Virus record (IMG/VR): IMGVR_UViG_3300031965_000012
Span: 7,998-71,997 of that record
Origin: a virus
Lineage: Duplodnaviria; Caudoviricetes
Direction: 5' to 3' (one strand)
Length of the DNA stretch: 64,000 bases
In this document: positions 7,231 through 49,445 of the stretch, in pieces
Numbering within the stretch: position 1 is the stretch's first letter
Layout: every line of letters starts with the position of its first letter
The notes under the pieces: model-generated
Databases searched by the model: none
The model's input: the letters and a program-made list of their open reading frames with translations, nothing else
What the model was told of the DNA's origin: nothing
Position numbers and translations under genes: made by a program

Positions 7231-8766
7231 TTATGCAATATCCCAGTTTCCGGAGTCAGGAATTGCCACATAATCCCCCGTTCCATCAAATTTCCATGAA
7301 GAATTGAAACCTGTATCGGTCTCTTGGGAGAGAACAATTCCGTCTGTGAGAGTGACGTTGTGGTTCTCTCCGCCTACTGCTGAATTCCCACTTGGCTGCA
7401 GAAGTAGTTTTGTATTGGTGTCAGATTCAAGAGGAGCAGAAGGAGGAGTAAAACCACTCTCCATACTCCTAGTTGTCCCAGTACTAATCCTAATAATCGG
7501 GATAAATCCGTCAAAGTAATACACGCCACTTGCGTACGGATTTATCGAAGCAATAATCAATGGAAGACCAGAAGCAGTTTGTATTGTACGTGTACTTATA
7601 TCGTGCGTGGTCCCCTGCTGGACTCCATCAATAAATATTTTTAAATCCGCGCCATTCCGGACTACCGCGAAATGGTAAAGCCTGTTGTTAACTGGGGTAA
7701 ATCCAGAAGAGACATCAACCCTTGTTCCACCATATCTATAAGAAAAATATAATACACCACTCCCACCATTATCATAAAACCACAACCAATAATTGTTTGT
7801 AGTAGCAACATCATTTCCCTTACCAAAAAGTATGGGGTAGCTATCACCAGACGGGTATGTAGTATCTTTACAAAACCACCCATCTATTACAAAGTCAGCA
7901 CTGCCAAGTTCTAAAGATGCATCGTCTGGTATAGACAAGTATTCAGTTGCCCCATCAAGCTCAAATGCCCCATCCCACCAAAAAGTACATCCTGAAACAC
8001 CAACTACTGTAACAGTATGCCCCGTGCTACCACTATCAGTAAAACTAGTAGGTGTCCCCCCTTGTATCCATCCACTATCTTCTGTACTATCAAACTTGAT
8101 ATATAATTTCAGGTTTGAATCCTCTGTTATATCTGTCGGAGAAGTAGGAGGAGAATATGATGCATCTGAGTTATGAACGCAGTTACTGTAAACACCAACA
8201 TGCCCAATATATCCTTGGAACATAGTGCCAACACCAGTTAAAGAGCGCCTACCAATTGAAAGAGAATTCGAATAATTTTGGAATGAAGAAACACTGCCAG
8301 ATCCCCCCAAAACACCATTAATAAATATCCTAAGGACACCGGAAGAGTAAGCCAGCTCAACATAATTCCACTTCCCTATAGATAGTGGTACGGTGGTTGC
8401 AATATATGTTCCAGCTCCATTTGTATAAAATCTTAGGATATCACCAGATCCTCCCTCTACCCACCAACCAGTATATGGGGATGCGTATAATGATTTCCCA
8501 AATAGCTCCTTATTATTTATTGTAACTGTTGGAAAAATCCAAAGCGCGATGGTAAAATCTGATGTGCCTGGTTGAAAATCTGTATGGTCAGGCACCGTTA
8601 AATAGGATGATCCATTAAAGAACCCAGAAGTCCCAACCAGGCTATTCCCCTCAGCCCCGAAACTTTTCAGAACAGGGGTGCCATGAACAGTTATCTCATG
8701 GCCAACGTTCCCCCGGTCCCCAAGGCAAGGCAAGAGTAATTTTGTATTTACGGTATTACCGGCCAT
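7231..8766 (-). CDS. LamG-repeat tail / receptor-binding protein
   Basis: Repeated FNGSSYLTVPD..DFTIALW, WNYVELA, LRIFING, YHFAVVR, KIFIDG motifs. Confidence 0.8.
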   Translation of the reverse strand: MAGNTVNTKLLLPCLGDRGNVGHEITVHGTPVLKSFGAEGNSLVGTSGFFNGSSYLTVPDHTDFQPGTSDFTIALWIFPTVTINNKELFGKSLYASPYTGWWVEGGSGDILRFYTNGAGTYIATTVPLSIGKWNYVELAYSSGVLRIFINGVLGGSGSVSSFQNYSNSLSIGRRSLTGVGTMFQGYIGHVGVYSNCVHNSDASYSPPTSPTDITEDSNLKLYIKFDSTEDSGWIQGGTPTSFTDSGSTGHTVTVVGVSGCTFWWDGAFELDGATEYLSIPDDASLELGSADFVIDGWFCKDTTYPSGDSYPILFGKGNDVATTNNYWLWFYDNGGSGVLYFSYRYGGTRVDVSSGFTPVNNRLYHFAVVRNGADLKIFIDGVQQGTTHDISTRTIQTASGLPLIIASINPYASGVYYFDGFIPIIRISTGTTRSMESGFTPPSAPLESDTNTKLLLQPSGNSAVGGENHNVTLTDGIVLSQETDTGFNSSWKFDGTGDYVAIPDSGNWDIA

Positions 8767-19391: not shown

Positions 19392-19413
19392 AATAAAGAA
19401 ATTATAAAATATT

Positions 19414-19449
19414 TAAAATAAACCTTGTTTTTATTTTAAATATGAATTA
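19414..19449 (+). promoter_or_regulatory. Class-E (early-like) promoter copy 1
   Basis: TAAAATAAACCTTGTTTTTATTTTAAA core, TTGTTT-17-TATTAT; core repeated five times. Confidence 0.65.
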
Positions 19450-23482: not shown

Positions 23483-23493
23483 GGTAAAATAAT

Positions 23494-23529
23494 TAAAATA
23501 AACCTTGTTTTTATTTTAAATATGAATTA
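23494..23529 (+). promoter_or_regulatory. Class-E promoter copy 2
   Basis: Same core as 19414-19449. Confidence 0.65.
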
Positions 23530-28634: not shown

Positions 28635-28732
28635 AAGTATAAAATAATTAAAATAAACCTTGTTTTTATTTTAAATTGCTATATAATAGTAATCAAGAGG
28701 TAAGGGAAATTCAACAATAACTAAAAACAAGG
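28635..28732 (+). repeat. Class-E promoter plus leader copy 3 (98 bp identical to 46597-46694)
   Basis: Direct base-by-base comparison. Confidence 0.85.
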
Positions 28733-36248: not shown

Positions 36249-36333
36249 TAAAATAAACCTTGTTTTTATTTTAAATATGAATTATTATCTTTATTAACAG
36301 GTAAGGGAAATTCAACAATAACTAAAAACAAGG
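36249..36333 (+). promoter_or_regulatory. Class-E promoter plus leader copy 4
   Basis: Same core, plus the AGGTAAGGGAAATTCAACAATAACTAAAAACAAGG leader shared with copies 3 and 5. Confidence 0.7.
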
Positions 36334-36343
36334 AGGTAAGGAC

Positions 36344-45706: not shown

Positions 45707-46598
45707 TTACCGGCCAGATAATTTAGATGAAATTGAGGGAAATGAAGCAGTTGTTAAAGCATTAAAAAGCAAATTAAAGAGTAAGGACATTCCCCACTCT
45801 TTTTTGATAACCGGTCCTAGCGGATGTGGGAAAACAACAATCGCCCGAATCATTAAAACAGAATTAGGATGTAGTGATGATAATTACAAAGAGGTAGATT
45901 CGGCAGATTTTAGGGGGATTGATAGCATTCGTGAAATCAGGAAACAAATGAATACCAAAGGACTAGGCGGGGGTATTAAAGTTTATTTGCTAGATGAATG
46001 TCATCAGATATCTAAAGATGGACAATCAGCACTATTGAAAGCATTAGAGGACACGCCACCTCATGTTTATTTTATTTTGGCAACCACTGATCCACAAAAG
46101 CTATTACCAACTATAAAAACGCGTTGTACGACATATAATGTTGAACCCCTTACCCAGGCCCATATGGAGAAGTTTTTGGCGGAGATATGCGATTCTGAAG
46201 CCAAGAAAGTACCAGAAAAAGTACTTGCTCAGATTGCCATGGATTCTATGGGTAGTCCGAGGGCGGCACTTGTCATTTTAGACAAAGTAATCGACATGAA
46301 GAAAAAGGATATGGAGGAAGCTGCAAAACAAGCTGCTATACAGGAAAATCAGTCGATTGAGCTATATCAGGCGGTAATTAAGAAAAAGGGCTGGAAAGCG
46401 ATTTCTGCTATCATAAAAGGGCTAAATGAAGAGCCTGAGACAATCAGAATAAAAGGAATGTTTTATTTTGAAGCTGTGTTGCTAAATAGTGGACAAGAAC
46501 GGATGTTTGATATTTTGGAATGTTTAAATAAACCAATATATAATGAGCCAAAGCGCCCTCAACTATCCATGATGTTTTTTGATGCATCCTCATGTTAA
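45690..46598 (+). CDS. Clamp loader (DnaX gamma/tau-like)
   Basis: LHIDYRP, GPSGCGKTT, LLDECH, ALLKALEDTP, ATTDPQKL..TIKTRC. Confidence 0.9.
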   Translation: MPLHIDYRPDNLDEIEGNEAVVKALKSKLKSKDIPHSFLITGPSGCGKTTIARIIKTELGCSDDNYKEVDSADFRGIDSIREIRKQMNTKGLGGGIKVYLLDECHQISKDGQSALLKALEDTPPHVYFILATTDPQKLLPTIKTRCTTYNVEPLTQAHMEKFLAEICDSEAKKVPEKVLAQIAMDSMGSPRAALVILDKVIDMKKKDMEEAAKQAAIQENQSIELYQAVIKKKGWKAISAIIKGLNEEPETIRIKGMFYFEAVLLNSGQERMFDILECLNKPIYNEPKRPQLSMMFFDASSC

Positions 46599-46694
46599 GT
46601 ATAAAATAATTAAAATAAACCTTGTTTTTATTTTAAATTGCTATATAATAGTAATCAAGAGGTAAGGGAAATTCAACAATAACTAAAAACAAGG
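46597..46694 (+). repeat. Class-E promoter plus leader copy 5, directly upstream of the cassette island
   Basis: 98 bp identical to 28635-28732. Confidence 0.85.
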
Positions 46695-46703
46695 AGAACT
46701 ACC

Positions 46704-46898
46704 ATGAAACTTTACGCTTATGACCCCAACACGATGGAAGTTTTGGCAATCGCAAATGGAGAAACCAACGAAGAATGTGAATCCAAAATGAACGAAGCCG
46801 GATTTCCTGACGGTGACGAGATCGGTTGGACTTACTCTCCGGCCTTTGGAGCGGTTGACGGTTTGGTAGAAACTGACGATGCCAAGGAAATCGAGTAA
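46704..46898 (+). CDS. Acidic hypothetical early protein
   Basis: AAGGAG RBS; GC-richer codons than the flanking core genes. Confidence 0.6.
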   Translation: MKLYAYDPNTMEVLAIANGETNEECESKMNEAGFPDGDEIGWTYSPAFGAVDGLVETDDAKEIE

Positions 46899-46909
46899 TG
46901 GTTGAGGCC

Positions 46910-46943
46910 AAAAAGAGCCGGGGTAATAATGTTGACCCGGCTC
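46910..46943 (-). terminator. Minus-strand intrinsic terminator candidate
   Basis: GAGCCGGG/CCCGGCTC stem followed by TTTTT on the minus strand. Confidence 0.5.
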
Positions 46944-47091
46944 ACTCAAAGAGAACGCCCGCCGGGTAGCGATAAAAATACGCTGGACGGCGGGCGAAAT
47001 TGAAGAGGTCAAGGTAGCGGCGGAACGGGCCGGCGAGGATGTTTCCTCTTTTATTCGGGTCGCTGCCCTTGACCGTTGCCGTAAAATCTAA
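46944..47091 (+). pseudogene. RHH-like gene fragment lacking an in-frame start
   Basis: RVAIKIRWTAGEIEEVKVAAERAGEDVSSFIRVAALDRCRKI*; three in-frame stops upstream inside the hairpin. Confidence 0.4.
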
Positions 47092-47211
47092 CGCCAAGGG
47101 TAACTTGCCTTTTGGCTACCACAAACTTGATAAGGAGCAATGGGATGAATCAACCACATGATATTGACGAAGCCGACGGCCAAAAGGTCAACGTTGGCCC
47201 GTTTGTTAGCG
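47086..47211 (-). other. attC site 1 (126 bp)
   Basis: + strand ATCTAAC-GCCAAG-GGTAACT...CGTTGGCC-CGTTT-GTTAGCG; extra G and T in the 3' arm. Confidence 0.8.
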
Positions 47212-47447
47212 GCTTTGAGGAGTTATTTAATGCCCTGAAAGAATCACTTGAACATGACGTTTCATGGTGGCGTATTATCGGATTTGTAGATGAACCGAAA
47301 GGAGACTGCCAACCGAGCGATTGCAAATATTTTGAATACGAATTTTGTGACCAGAGATGCGGCGGGCCGGATGGGGATATGTGTGATGGCGACATCTATT
47401 TTCCACTCCCTGATGGCAGATTTCTGATGGTGAATTATTGCATCTAA
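47145..47447 (+). CDS. Cassette A hypothetical Cys-rich protein (starts inside attC1)
   Basis: AAGGAG RBS at 47132-47137; stop TAA inside the next box. Confidence 0.6.
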   Translation: MNQPHDIDEADGQKVNVGPFVSGFEELFNALKESLEHDVSWWRIIGFVDEPKGDCQPSDCKYFEYEFCDQRCGGPDGDMCDGDIYFPLPDGRFLMVNYCI

Positions 47448-47529
47448 CGTTAAGGGTGAGCCGACCGGGCCACCCAACAAGGCAAAAACCGCCAGCGTTC
47501 CCCCGGTCGGCTCTACCCGCTTGTTATGC
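47442..47529 (-). other. attC site 2 (88 bp)
   Basis: ATCTAAC-GTTAAG-GGTGAGC-CGACCGGG...CCCGGTCG-GCTCTACC-CGCTT-GTTATGC. Confidence 0.88.
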
Positions 47530-47547
47530 ACTTTTGGAGTTATTGCA

Positions 47548-47976
47548 ATGGCAAATTGGGATAAGCGATTCCTTGACCTGGCCCAGCATATTGCTGGATG
47601 GTCAAAAGATCCATCGACACGGTGTGGGGCTGTTGTCACAGATGGGAAGCGGATAGTTAGCATGGGTTTTAACGGATTTCCACAGGGTGTTGGAGATACC
47701 AGCGAGCGACTGGACAACAGAGAGACAAAATACCGTCTTGTGTTACACGCCGAACAAAACGCGTTGTCATTTGCGAACCGTGATCTATCAGGCTGCACAA
47801 TCTATGTCTACCCTATGCCTCCATGTTCCAGATGTGCGGCCCAGATTATCCAGGCTGGAATTAGACGAATAGTCACTCAGCGTCCTGATGCTGATAAGTT
47901 GGAACGGTGGCAGGAAGATTTTGAGTTGGCCAACGAAATGTACCGGGAAACCGGTGTTGATTTTAACTACCTGTAA
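47548..47976 (+). CDS. dCMP deaminase (cassette B)
   Basis: WDKRFLDLA, SKDPST, MGFNGFP, HAEQNA, PCSRCA. Confidence 0.92.
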   Translation: MANWDKRFLDLAQHIAGWSKDPSTRCGAVVTDGKRIVSMGFNGFPQGVGDTSERLDNRETKYRLVLHAEQNALSFANRDLSGCTIYVYPMPPCSRCAAQIIQAGIRRIVTQRPDADKLERWQEDFELANEMYRETGVDFNYL

Positions 47977-47985
47977 GGAGAAGAC

Positions 47986-48333
47986 ATGACCCCTGAACGA
48001 TTTCAAGAAATAGTCAAAGAACTGCAAGTCAAGACCACCGATGTCTTGACCAAGAAAGCGATGGAGTACAGCAGAAACGGCGAAAGGTTCCACAATTTTG
48101 TCGTGGCCGGTCGCCGTTTAGGGTGTGACCCTATACAAGCTCTTATCGGCATGAAAGAGAAGCACAGTGTTTCCCTGGTTGACATGCTGGAAGATTTGAA
48201 GGACGGGAAGCTGCCAACCATTGCTATGCTTAATGAGAAGTTCGGTGACGAAATCAATTATCTGATCCTTGAATATGCCATGTTCAGAGAGAGGATTGAC
48301 GCTTCCCCAAAAGGTGCCGAAGCGGGTACATAA
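47986..48333 (+). CDS. Hypothetical helical phage protein (cassette B, second gene)
   Basis: AAGGAG RBS; KAMEYS..ERFHNF, KFGDEINYL; stop inside the box. Confidence 0.65.
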   Translation: MTPERFQEIVKELQVKTTDVLTKKAMEYSRNGERFHNFVVAGRRLGCDPIQALIGMKEKHSVSLVDMLEDLKDGKLPTIAMLNEKFGDEINYLILEYAMFRERIDASPKGAEAGT

Positions 48334-48450
48334 CGATAAAGCTCACCTGAAACATGGGAAACGAAACTATGATTGAAATGACGAAAACACCCACCGTGAT
48401 GGAACAAAGAGCAGCAGCCCCATGTTTTCAGGTGAAGCGCCTGGTTATGC
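48328..48450 (-). other. attC site 3 (123 bp)
   Basis: ACATAAC-GATAAA-GCTCACC-TGAAACATGGG...CCCATGTTTTCA-GGTGAAGC-GCCTG-GTTATGC. Confidence 0.88.
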
Positions 48451-48662
48451 CAAAAACACGGGGTTACACCGAAGCCCAGGCCATTGCAGGAGGGATGCAC
48501 TATTCTGACGATAAGCACTGCCCCGAGTGTGGGTGCCCATGGTACGGCAATAAAAACATGCTTGGTGATGGATCAAGGGTGTGTTGCGATTGCTATCAAG
48601 ATTGGTGGACAGATATTGTTTATACTATGGTGGCAGAAAGGCGAGAACTACCCGAGGCATAA
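48354..48662 (+). CDS. Cassette C Zn-finger-like hypothetical protein (frame opens inside attC3)
   Basis: CPECGC...CCDC; in-frame ATGs at 48354, 48369, 48378 and 48447. Confidence 0.6.
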   Translation: MGNETMIEMTKTPTVMEQRAAAPCFQVKRLVMPKTRGYTEAQAIAGGMHYSDDKHCPECGCPWYGNKNMLGDGSRVCCDCYQDWWTDIVYTMVAERRELPEA

Positions 48663-48746
48663 CGGCTTGATAACCCGACCGGGCCATTGAAGCCGCCCGG
48701 GAGGCCACCCCGAATTGCCCCGGTCGGGTTTATGAAATTGTTATGC
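48657..48746 (-). other. attC site 4 (90 bp)
   Basis: GCATAAC-GGCTTG-ATAACCC-GACCGGG...CCCGGTC-GGGTTTAT-GAAATT-GTTATGC. Confidence 0.85.
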
Positions 48747-48758
48747 AAGGAGAAGAAT

Positions 48759-48953
48759 ATGGCAAGGGCACGATTACATATCATTTGTGGGAATTGTGGG
48801 TGCAATGACGAGTGGAAATTGATTTTATCTCGTGACGGGGATGATATTACCAAAGAAGACCCTGAGTTTGAAGATGCAGCACGATTGCTATGCCGTAATT
48901 GCTCCACATTGCACAATCTGAAAGATTCGGCAAAAACGGTAGAGATTTTATAG
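48759..48953 (+). CDS. Cassette D Zn-ribbon-like hypothetical protein
   Basis: AAGGAG RBS; CGNCGC...CRNC. Confidence 0.65.
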   Translation: MARARLHIICGNCGCNDEWKLILSRDGDDITKEDPEFEDAARLLCRNCSTLHNLKDSAKTVEIL

Positions 48954-48955
48954 GA

Positions 48956-49041
48956 GCATAACGCTTTAACTCAGCGGCGGGCCAAAAGCGGAGGCTCAAA
49001 GCGCAAAAGTTATTCCCGTCCGCTGGAGTGCTTTGTTATGC
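48956..49041 (-). other. attC site 5 (86 bp)
   Basis: GCATAAC-GCTTTA-ACTCAGC-GGCGGG...CCCG-T-CC-GCTGGAGT-GCTTT-GTTATGC, canonical extrahelical T and G. Confidence 0.9.
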
Positions 49042-49238
49042 AAAATTTTGTATTTGTTTATGCCCTTAACGGTGATTACCGCTGTCTCGGAATTGATGCA
49101 GCACAGACAACCGGCAAGCAATTAATAAAAGAGGGCTGGAAGCACACAGCCACGTTAAATCCTGAAACATGGATGGAATTTTTTCTTAATGGCGACGAAA
49201 CGCGAAGATTTGAAGCGATTGAATCTATCTCTGCATAA
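49038..49238 (+). CDS. Cassette E hypothetical protein (ATG inside the attC5 box)
   Basis: GGAG at 49025-49028 within the attC; TAA inside the terminal GCATAAC box. Confidence 0.6.
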   Translation: MQNFVFVYALNGDYRCLGIDAAQTTGKQLIKEGWKHTATLNPETWMEFFLNGDETRRFEAIESISA

Positions 49239-49297
49239 CAGTGTCAATAAGTGGAAAACTTCTACATATCACGATATTAAACGTTAAAAGTGGAAAA
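49233..49297 (-). other. Terminal recombination box (attI-like site or attC remnant)
   Basis: GCATAAC without a pairing arm, followed by the direct repeat AAGTGGAAAA at 49249-49258 and 49288-49297. Confidence 0.45.
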
Positions 49298-49348: not shown

Positions 49349-49424
49349 TAAACCAGGCATAGCTTTTCCATGCTGAGCTATCCGTTGGGCACGGTGCTGA
49401 CAATAGTGTCGGTGGCCTGGTTTA
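49349..49424 (+). ncRNA. Candidate structured RNA, perfect four-way junction
   Basis: 10-bp closing stem TAAACCAGGC/GCCTGGTTTA with helices ATAGC/GCTAT, CCGT/ACGG and TGCTGACA/TGTCGGTG (G-U pairs favour the + strand). Confidence 0.5.
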
Positions 49425-49445
49425 TTTTTAAAGAGGGAGAAACTT

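Follow-up and report, generated by a model that had tools for sequence, protein, structure and literature searches.

The DNA examined here is a 64-kb window (64,000 nucleotides, the whole stretch that was analyzed, to which all coordinates refer) covering positions 7,998 to 71,997 of the IMG/VR virus record IMGVR_UViG_3300031965_000012, a linear 72-kb contig from a soil phage that is estimated to be 68% complete. The phage genome has a G+C content of ~35% and carries nearly all of its genes on the + strand. From 46700 to 49240 the G+C content rises from ~0.35 to 0.46-0.53, the rise beginning directly 3' of a promoter-leader module. This GC-rich island contains five hairpin sites bounded by ...YAAC and GTTR... 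boxes, and one lone box (47086-49238), with genes packed between them (Table 1). The sites resemble the attC sites of integrons. With a probability of about 0.82, the island is a genuine integron-type cassette array that has no integrase (cluster of attC sites lacking integron integrases, CALIN) and belongs to a lineage of phage integrons whose cassette genes share the attC bottom strand with the gene for the integrase IntI.

Genes of the array

The + strand open reading frames (ORFs) of the island are confidently predicted to be real genes. The second cassette encodes a dCMP deaminase (Pfam 2.4e-18, PHROG 1.7e-44) and a protein matching phrog_6802 (1e-29). ORF4 has a homologue with 61% identity at locus L001, where no attC is present, and the homologue of ORF6 in viral contig L006 is 86% identical (85% at the nucleotide level). 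No relative of ORF1 was found among the viral contigs, and the protein library returned only ORF1 itself; an 88% identical nucleotide copy is present in sequencing run X3, where it ends at the equivalent of the TAAC at 47448, and 12 of the 17 listed differences fall at third codon positions. Five of the six ORFs that adjoin a box end in a TAA belonging to the left box, as an earlier note made from the letters of this DNA had stated. The exception, ORF5, ends in TAG five bases 5' of its box.

The deaminase and phrog_6802 genes, or the second gene alone, also occur as plain phage genes without attC sites and with ~81% nucleotide identity (L051:3401-4177, L052:944-1720 and L050:1427-1747). To judge from these matches the deaminase cassette was evidently made from phage genes, and such plain pairs may represent the source population from which cassettes are formed.

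Table 1. Features of the island and its borders. Bulges are single unpaired bases numbered from the 3' end of the site; cassettes are drawn between the proposed cleavage points, AA↓C to AA↓C.
Feature	Position	Strand	Description
Promoter-leader module	46597..46694	+	98 bp, directly 5' of the GC-rich island; 100% identical to 28635-28732
GC-rich stretch left of attC1	46704..47091	+	64-aa ORF (46704-46898) and NikA/RHH-like fragment (46939-47091)
attC1	47086..47211	+	126 nt; left box ATCTAAC, right box GTTAGCG; bulges G15, C20 and T24 on 3' arm
Cassette 1	47092..47447	+	attC1 body and ORF1 (47145-47447, 100 aa)
attC2	47442..47529	+	88 nt; ATCTAAC ... GTTATGC; perfect 12-bp stem; bulge T16 on 3' arm
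Cassette 2	47448..48333	+	attC2 body, dCMP deaminase (47548-47976) and phrog_6802 protein (47986-48333)
attC3	48328..48450	+	123 nt; ACATAAC ... GTTATGC; bulges A16 and T26
Cassette 3	48334..48662	+	attC3 body and ORF4, zinc-ribbon-like protein
attC4	48657..48746	+	90 nt; GCATAAC ... GTTATGC; bulge T18 (TTT run 16-18) on 3' arm
Cassette 4	48663..48961	+	attC4 body and ORF5 (48759-48953, 64 aa); weak PHROG match only
attC5	48956..49041	+	86 nt; GCATAAC ... GTTATGC; bulges G17 (GG at 16-17) and T23; aadA1-like spacing
Cassette 5	48962..49237	+	attC5 body and ORF6 (49038-49238, 66 aa)
Lone left box GCATAAC	49232..49238	+	no hairpin partner; attI-side end of the array
Long hairpin followed by T run	49349..49430	+	inverted repeat, terminator-like, 3' of the array

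The five attC sites

Sites were sought with a finder that requires AAC and GTT spaced 50-150 nt apart with complementary arms. Five were found in 46700-49240, compared with a mean of 0.03 (maximum 1) over 300 shuffles, and the other 69 kb of the genome gave one weak site. All five lie within 2 kb and share one polarity, with single genes or gene pairs between them. Their boxes follow the RYYYAAC / GTTRRRY pattern: the left box is ATCTAAC at two sites, ACATAAC at one and GCATAAC at two, and the right box is GTTAGCG at one and GTTATGC at four. Each site folds into an imperfect hairpin whose central spacer is unpaired, and opposite the AAC there are extrahelical bases at about 16 and 23-26. The stem of attC4 is related to that of attC2. 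With at least two attC sites and no integron integrase nearby, the locus is a CALIN; a complete integron, in which intI and attI adjoin the array, is not present on the 72-kb contig, itself 68% complete.

Phage intergenic terminators, repetitive extragenic palindromic (REP)-like repeats or regulatory RNA stems might resemble attC sites, and these hairpins are indeed intergenic, GC-rich and situated in an operon, with one weak terminator-like match inside attC1. That match was the only one, the scan counts were near the shuffle level, the bodies of the sites differ from each other, and no T runs follow them. The AAC/GTT boxes are conserved, the spacers are unpaired, and the bulges fall at 16 and 23-26. 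Furthermore, the same types of site adjoin a 407-bit IntI in related phages, and cassettes have been exchanged exactly at the boxes. The chance that the hairpins are something other than integron sites is judged negligible.

The sample from which the phage was recovered contains a second contig with only the 32-nt 3' arm and box of attC5 (49012-49043), set between unrelated flanks. Over attC3 the sequencing is three times as deep as over its neighbours. These two observations indicate that further arrays with these attC types are present in the same soil.

Strand polarity of the sites

The bottom strand of an attC site, which is the recombining one, is marked by extrahelical bases opposite the AAC triplet, a base at position 16 and a T at 23 or 24 (Nivina et al. 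2016, PMC5027507). The sites were folded as DNA both freely and with the AAC/GTT pairs enforced, and bulge positions were counted from the 3' end. At five of five sites every single-base bulge is on the 3' arm of the + strand, which is the coding strand, opposite the AAC triplet and at positions 15-18 and 23-26. The same folding script gave G16 and T23 on the bottom strand of the aadA1 attC of plasmid R100 and placed the bulges of its coding strand on the 5' arm; in R100 the attC directly follows aadA1, and intI1 is on the other strand. In Tetrasphaera phage TJE1, a published CALIN, G16/T23 were found on the non-coding strand, which is the normal polarity. The polarity of the window is thus the mirror image of both controls.

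The measure was also applied to 15 viral loci that encode IntI. Where attC-like sites lying up to a few kb 5' of intI are asymmetric, the extra bases are nearly always in the 3' arm as read on the intI-sense strand, which calibrates the polarity measure independently of any gene. Among these loci, L030-L043 served only this purpose: Pfam gave no match in their cassette ORFs from which the gene strand could be read, and open-frame coverage fails to tell the strands apart in such GC-rich DNA. At a chromosomal IntI locus of Azoarcus, taken as a bacterial control, transposases rather than an array adjoin intI.

In a standard integron the gene is on the top strand with its attC at the 3' end. In the window the genes supported by Pfam and PHROG are on the strand with bottom-strand geometry, and the array is therefore a variant rather than a standard member of the integron cassettes. 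Reversed gene polarity is well supported by comparison of sequences. The earlier note had proposed just this, that the coding strand is the attC bottom strand with its unpaired bases in the 3' arm, and had suggested folding both strands to locate them. The folds bear it out, down to the bulges named for attC5 and attC1, the latter with C20 in addition. Its spacer lengths of 6 and 5 nt are close to those of the folds, which are 6/5, 5/4 and 4/4.

Relatives that carry an integron integrase

A complete integron with attC types as in the window is present in the viral record IMGVR_UViG_3300045918_000492 (G005; loci L004, L027 and L029). Its IntI is a full-length protein of 321 aa that scores 407 bits against TIGR02249 (cut-off 265). 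Four attC sites, two of them attC3-type, precede the intI gene on its left. The cassette genes, which include two for PF01555 DNA methylases, share its strand. Read along the intI-sense strand, all four sites have their bulges in the 3' arm. A GTTATGC box supplies the ATG of the last cassette ORF, which ends in GCATAAC, and another 48 bases separate this box from the intI start codon.

Two more such loci were found through homologues of this IntI. L055 is a Mu-like phage with an IntI 80% identical and six cassettes, in which all called genes are on the intI strand. Its cassettes are followed by TTGCTAAC, AGATATTA, a short CCGC...GCGG hairpin, a ribosome-binding site (RBS) and intI. L056 has the same plan; its IntI is 70% identical and, as in G005, a terminase comes next. 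The order attC, attI and intI (sense) is that of the R100 bottom strand; the phage integrons keep it, and only the cassette genes are turned round.

The stretch between the lone ...TAAC box and the intI start is attI-like and common to the three loci (L004:5101-5157, L055:5946-6002 and L056:5948-6002), with AGA(T/G)ATTA, the CCGC...GCGG hairpin and an RBS. It is only ~48 nt, far shorter than attI1.

A 25-kb metagenome contig (L047:3343-6410) has at least five near-identical 89-nt attC sites with the same reversed polarity relative to Pfam-supported genes. The cargo between these sites consists of a PAPS reductase, the deaminase pair, a C5 DNA methylase and small ORFs, and a sulfotransferase gene follows.

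Cassette movement and the position of the crossover

A search of sequencing runs identified the source sample and three runs (X2-X4) from another study of soil, in which ~15% of the island's words are present. Contigs from X2-X4 match the island only at 47452-48335, with 95-99% identity. The matching segment runs from the attC2 body through the deaminase and phrog_6802 genes to the TAAC-G of the left box that follows. On the left it is flanked by unrelated DNA ending in a ...CCCAAC box of its own, and on the right by a different attC body, as confirmed on contig L046. Both breakpoints are at left boxes (AA↓C, giving AAC-G junctions), and the segment has moved as a unit. The mobile unit is therefore an attC together with its downstream gene or genes, and the crossover is at the left box, where the earlier note had placed it. 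The 95-99% identity of the copy in another array shows that the movement was recent.

Other loci bear on the same boundaries. Two contigs, L022 and L023, have an attC3-type site and a methylase in common, and their upstream DNA differs outward from the left box. A weaker case is L006:2413-2635, where the ORF6 homologue keeps only the last 21 nt of the attC5 3' arm, bulges included, before GTT-ATG, together with the two boxes, and ends at GCATAAC. This decayed cassette stands in an AT-rich phage context, a sign that a cassette may end up as a fixed, ordinary gene of a phage. The two circularization models were also compared by hand for the complementarity of their boxes, which did not discriminate between them because the boxes are too alike. 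A segment shared by L014 and L015 was considered as a cassette and ruled out; it is phage backbone, a recombination module.

The attC sites as leaders of their genes

The loop of attC1 contains an RBS, AAGGAG (47132-47137), and the ATG (47145) of ORF1, which has no in-frame start 3' of the site. The letters 5' of the ORF1 copy in X3 translate to a related N-terminus, so the N-terminus encoded by the attC1 loop is conserved. For ORF6 the RBS, GGAG, is in the 3' arm of attC5 and the ATG (49038) is in the right box. The palindromic box pair GCATAAC/GTTATGC supplies TAA at the left and ATG at the right.

The site attC3 belongs to a conserved 118-nt type that is present in at least seven other viral or metagenome contigs. 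Its loop contains ATG-ATT-GAA-ATG in frame with the downstream gene. At nine of nine complete sites of this type, the loop ATG-ATT-GAA opens a frame of 67 to more than 100 codons that continues across the 3' arm and the box into the gene behind, and this frame stays open although two subtypes differ by one base in length. Several of these genes, encoding methylases and a Ros/MucR-like protein, have no alternative start codon. The loop may therefore encode a common N-terminal peptide starting MIEMTETP; its conservation at the nucleotide level makes a role as DNA or RNA equally possible. ORF4 itself could start at ATG 48369, in the loop, or at ATG 48447, in the right box; the L001 homologue begins at the position equivalent to 48447. 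The ancestral start was probably ATG 48447 in the GTTATGC box, and the upstream in-frame ATGs may also be used.

The loop segment ATGGGAAACGAAACTATGATTGAAATGACGGAAACACCC is nearly invariant (window 48354-48450; L013-L016, L019 and L022-L024) and always in the frame of the downstream gene. Matches to a 21-mer of this loop in a 139-kb contig (L012, L017 and L018) and in L021 have no attC around them and were set aside as chance or unrelated. The contig of L017 (JBBABY010000003.1, 138,951 bp), filed as 'MAG: archaeon' (metagenome-assembled genome), is probably a phage contig binned with an archaeal genome.

The earlier note had explained these arrangements by treating each attC as the 5' leader of its gene, with RBS and start codons inside attC1, attC3 and attC5. 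The signals in attC1 and attC5 are as it described. The role as a leader holds for all five sites; a predicted start inside the site holds for ORF1, ORF4 and ORF6, and not for the deaminase or ORF5. The in-frame ATGs in the attC3 loop, from which it had ORF4 start, are present, but the box ATG is the better candidate for the ancestral start.

Genome setting of the array

The promoter-leader module directly 5' of the island has partial copies at 36249-36335, 23485-23521 and 19403-19441, which makes five occurrences in the phage, two of them identical over 98 bp. In the copy at 46597-46694 the end coincides with the RBS of the first GC-rich ORF in the island. This copy is likely to be the source of transcription through the array.

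Next to the 64-aa ORF, the stretch left of attC1 contains the NikA/RHH-like fragment (Pfam 7e-6). This has no ATG, GTG or TTG start, and its final TAA is within the attC1 left box. An ATG at 46931 is in a different frame, and the fragment resembles a frameshifted or truncated gene. The stretch may represent a former cassette whose attC has been lost.

At the other end of the array, only the first two bases (AG) after the lone box match the stretch that follows the lone box in G005, L055 and L056. The island gave no match in a distant blastn search of the GenBank phage collection. An allele with an empty site was not found; the neighbouring clamp-loader gene has no close relative among the viral contigs.

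Weighing the evidence

Four independent lines, the bulge geometry, the position of the integrase in relatives, the natural transfer of cassette 2 and the frames that start inside attC sites, agree that the + strand is the bottom strand and that the unit is an attC body with its downstream ORF.

Several points weigh against this interpretation. The choice of strand, the cleavage site, the transcription and the start codons are all deduced from sequence. The right box GTTATGC deviates from GTTRRRY at one position (T for R). The deaminase and ORF5 start 18 nt and 12 nt 3' of their attC sites, each with an RBS of its own, which for ORF5 is an AAGGAG directly after the attC4 box. A complication is the GC-rich stretch left of attC1, which has no attC of its own. 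Neither an IntI nor another tyrosine recombinase was detected in the 72-kb contig with TIGR02249 and PF00589. Older copies of cassette 2 (87-89% nucleotide identity; L047 and L054) have unrelated attC bodies on both sides, and their homology to the window begins ~5 nt before the right-box GTT. Unrelated attC bodies mean that the link between attC and gene can be broken over time, and occasional exchange at the right box or independent formation of the cassettes is a possible cause of this pattern. The L047/L054 comparison by itself leaves the two models of attC ownership undecided.

The other model is that of ordinary polarity. In this model the genes would be encoded on the top strand and each would belong with the attC that follows it; the right box would be cut at G↓TT, and the bulge positions would be no more than a quirk of these sites. 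The order of stop codon in or near the left box, hairpin, box, RBS and ATG also fits a gene followed by its attC, as do the two genes that start just after a right box and the homology between the window and L047 that begins near one. On that model the bulges would not be expected opposite the AAC of the coding strand at five of five sites while the aadA1 and TJE1 controls are the reverse, nor would intI and the lone box of G005, L055 and L056 follow the array on the strand of the genes. It predicts junctions at 47524 and 48444 with attC3 travelling along; the transferred segment has left-box junctions and keeps the upstream attC. Excision would also split ORF1 and the leader frames of the attC3 type each time. 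Ordinary polarity is accordingly considered very improbable.

The contig lacks a tyrosine recombinase, and mobility of the reversed cassettes in this phage would therefore need an IntI acting in trans; otherwise the array may be a relic. As a relic it would be real and reversed but dead, acquired once from an integrase-bearing phage or host and never recombining here, its genes belonging to an early operon and the starts and stops in the boxes having no special role. Beside the missing integrase, the left end of the island joins the phage promoter-leader directly and holds the startless RHH fragment, the sequence after the lone box is unlike the attI-like stretch of the relatives beyond two bases, and L006 shows that cassettes can decay into ordinary phage genes. 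A dead array fits poorly with five intact hairpins with correctly placed bulges and near-perfect box pairs, and with the recent movement indicated by the close copy of cassette 2 in another array; moreover, a contig that is only 68% complete may miss the gene, or IntI could be supplied in trans. The relic is regarded as unlikely, though it deserves serious consideration.

Proposed mechanism and significance

From the junctions of the transferred cassette, the mobile unit is C, the attC body, the GTTRRRY box, the ORF and RYYYAA. In the proposed mechanism IntI, provided in trans by the host or a co-infecting phage, would cut the + strand hairpins at AA↓C. Transcription of the array would run rightwards from the promoter-leader at 46597-46694 and not from a Pc promoter beside intI. 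Each attC forms the untranslated or translated 5' leader of its own gene, and its left box often gives the TAA of the preceding gene. Translation would start inside the attC for three genes, in the loop for ORF1 and in the GTT-ATG-C box for ORF4 and ORF6. A ribosome halting at the left-box TAA may open the base of the hairpin and free the paired start region, which would couple the translation of neighbouring cassettes.

The bottom strand here is the non-template strand, so transcription from a phage promoter would expose it as single-stranded DNA. A broader model is put forward tentatively, as a possibility that falls short of even odds. Phages may keep their own branch of integrons, with a dedicated IntI clade, a short conserved attI and attC-gene units on the bottom strand. 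The hairpin would double as an RNA leader with RBS and start, and in one type with a translated N-terminal peptide, and would bring the stop codon of each cassette into pairing with the start codon of the following one. Exposure of the bottom strand by transcription could then tie mobility to expression.

If the interpretation is correct, annotation pipelines that pair every ORF with the attC following it draw the limits of such cassettes wrongly. The logic of expression would be inverted, a new cassette being the last in the operon, beside intI, and not the first. The making of cassettes from ordinary phage genes, such as the deaminase pair (81%), would give a handle on the open question of cassette origin. 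The cargo consists of DNA-modification genes (dCMP deaminase here; many methylases, PAPS reductase and sulfotransferase in the relatives), which suggests a shuffling of DNA-modifying functions, possibly against host defences.

Comparison with known systems

CALINs and a few complete integrons have been described in phages; the TJE1 array was called typical, and phage attC sites were recombined by IntI1 in an assay (Qi et al. 2023, PMC9892861). The array in the window is like that of TJE1 in being an integrase-less attC cluster in a phage with phage-type cargo, methylases in TJE1, and here a deaminase with methylases in the relatives. It differs in polarity. The TJE1 sites folded here (1016-1075 and ~1464-1520) have normal polarity with the coding strand as the top strand, and reversed cassettes are not described in PMC9892861. 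A description of arrays with all genes on the attC bottom strand was not found in the integron literature searched, which does not cover all journals; on reversed phage cassettes it yielded only Qi et al. 2023 and papers on integrons in general.

The inverted integron-integrase group of Boucher et al. 2007 (cited in Cury et al. 2016, PMC4889954; for example in Treponema) is defined by an intI that is oriented as the attC sites. Both that group and the phage integrons have intI and the cassette genes transcribed the same way. In the phages, unlike that group, intI is normal relative to attC and attI, the array is on its 5' side, and the genes inside the cassettes are flipped. Consistent with this, the intI-sense strand of G005, L055 and L056 has bottom-strand geometry, as in R100.

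Like the classical integrons, both class 1 (such as In2/aadA1 of R100) and chromosomal, the phage arrays have RYYYAAC...GTTRRRY boxes, an unpaired spacer, extrahelical bases at about 16 and 23-24 and sites of variable length. The crossover is likewise placed at AA↓C of the bottom strand, a lone box marks the attI junction by intI, and intI is sense on the bottom strand. Unlike them, the phage cassette genes are on the bottom strand and point toward intI, and the unit is attC-gene instead of gene-attC. Expression from a Pc beside intI would not be possible and must come from the far end of the array, and RBSs and starts lie inside several attC sites. In the integron model bottom-strand selectivity inserts promoterless genes pointing away from intI, to be transcribed from Pc. 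The phage arrays retain this geometry with the genes opposite in every cassette, in several phage lineages, some with their own IntI.

Single reverse-oriented cassettes are known in chromosomal integrons, for example toxin-antitoxin cassettes with their own promoters, where the gene is antisense to its attC; these are scattered exceptions. In the phage array, in contrast, every cassette is reversed, as in at least six related arrays, and the cassettes look promoterless and are packed from a stop in one box to a start in the next.

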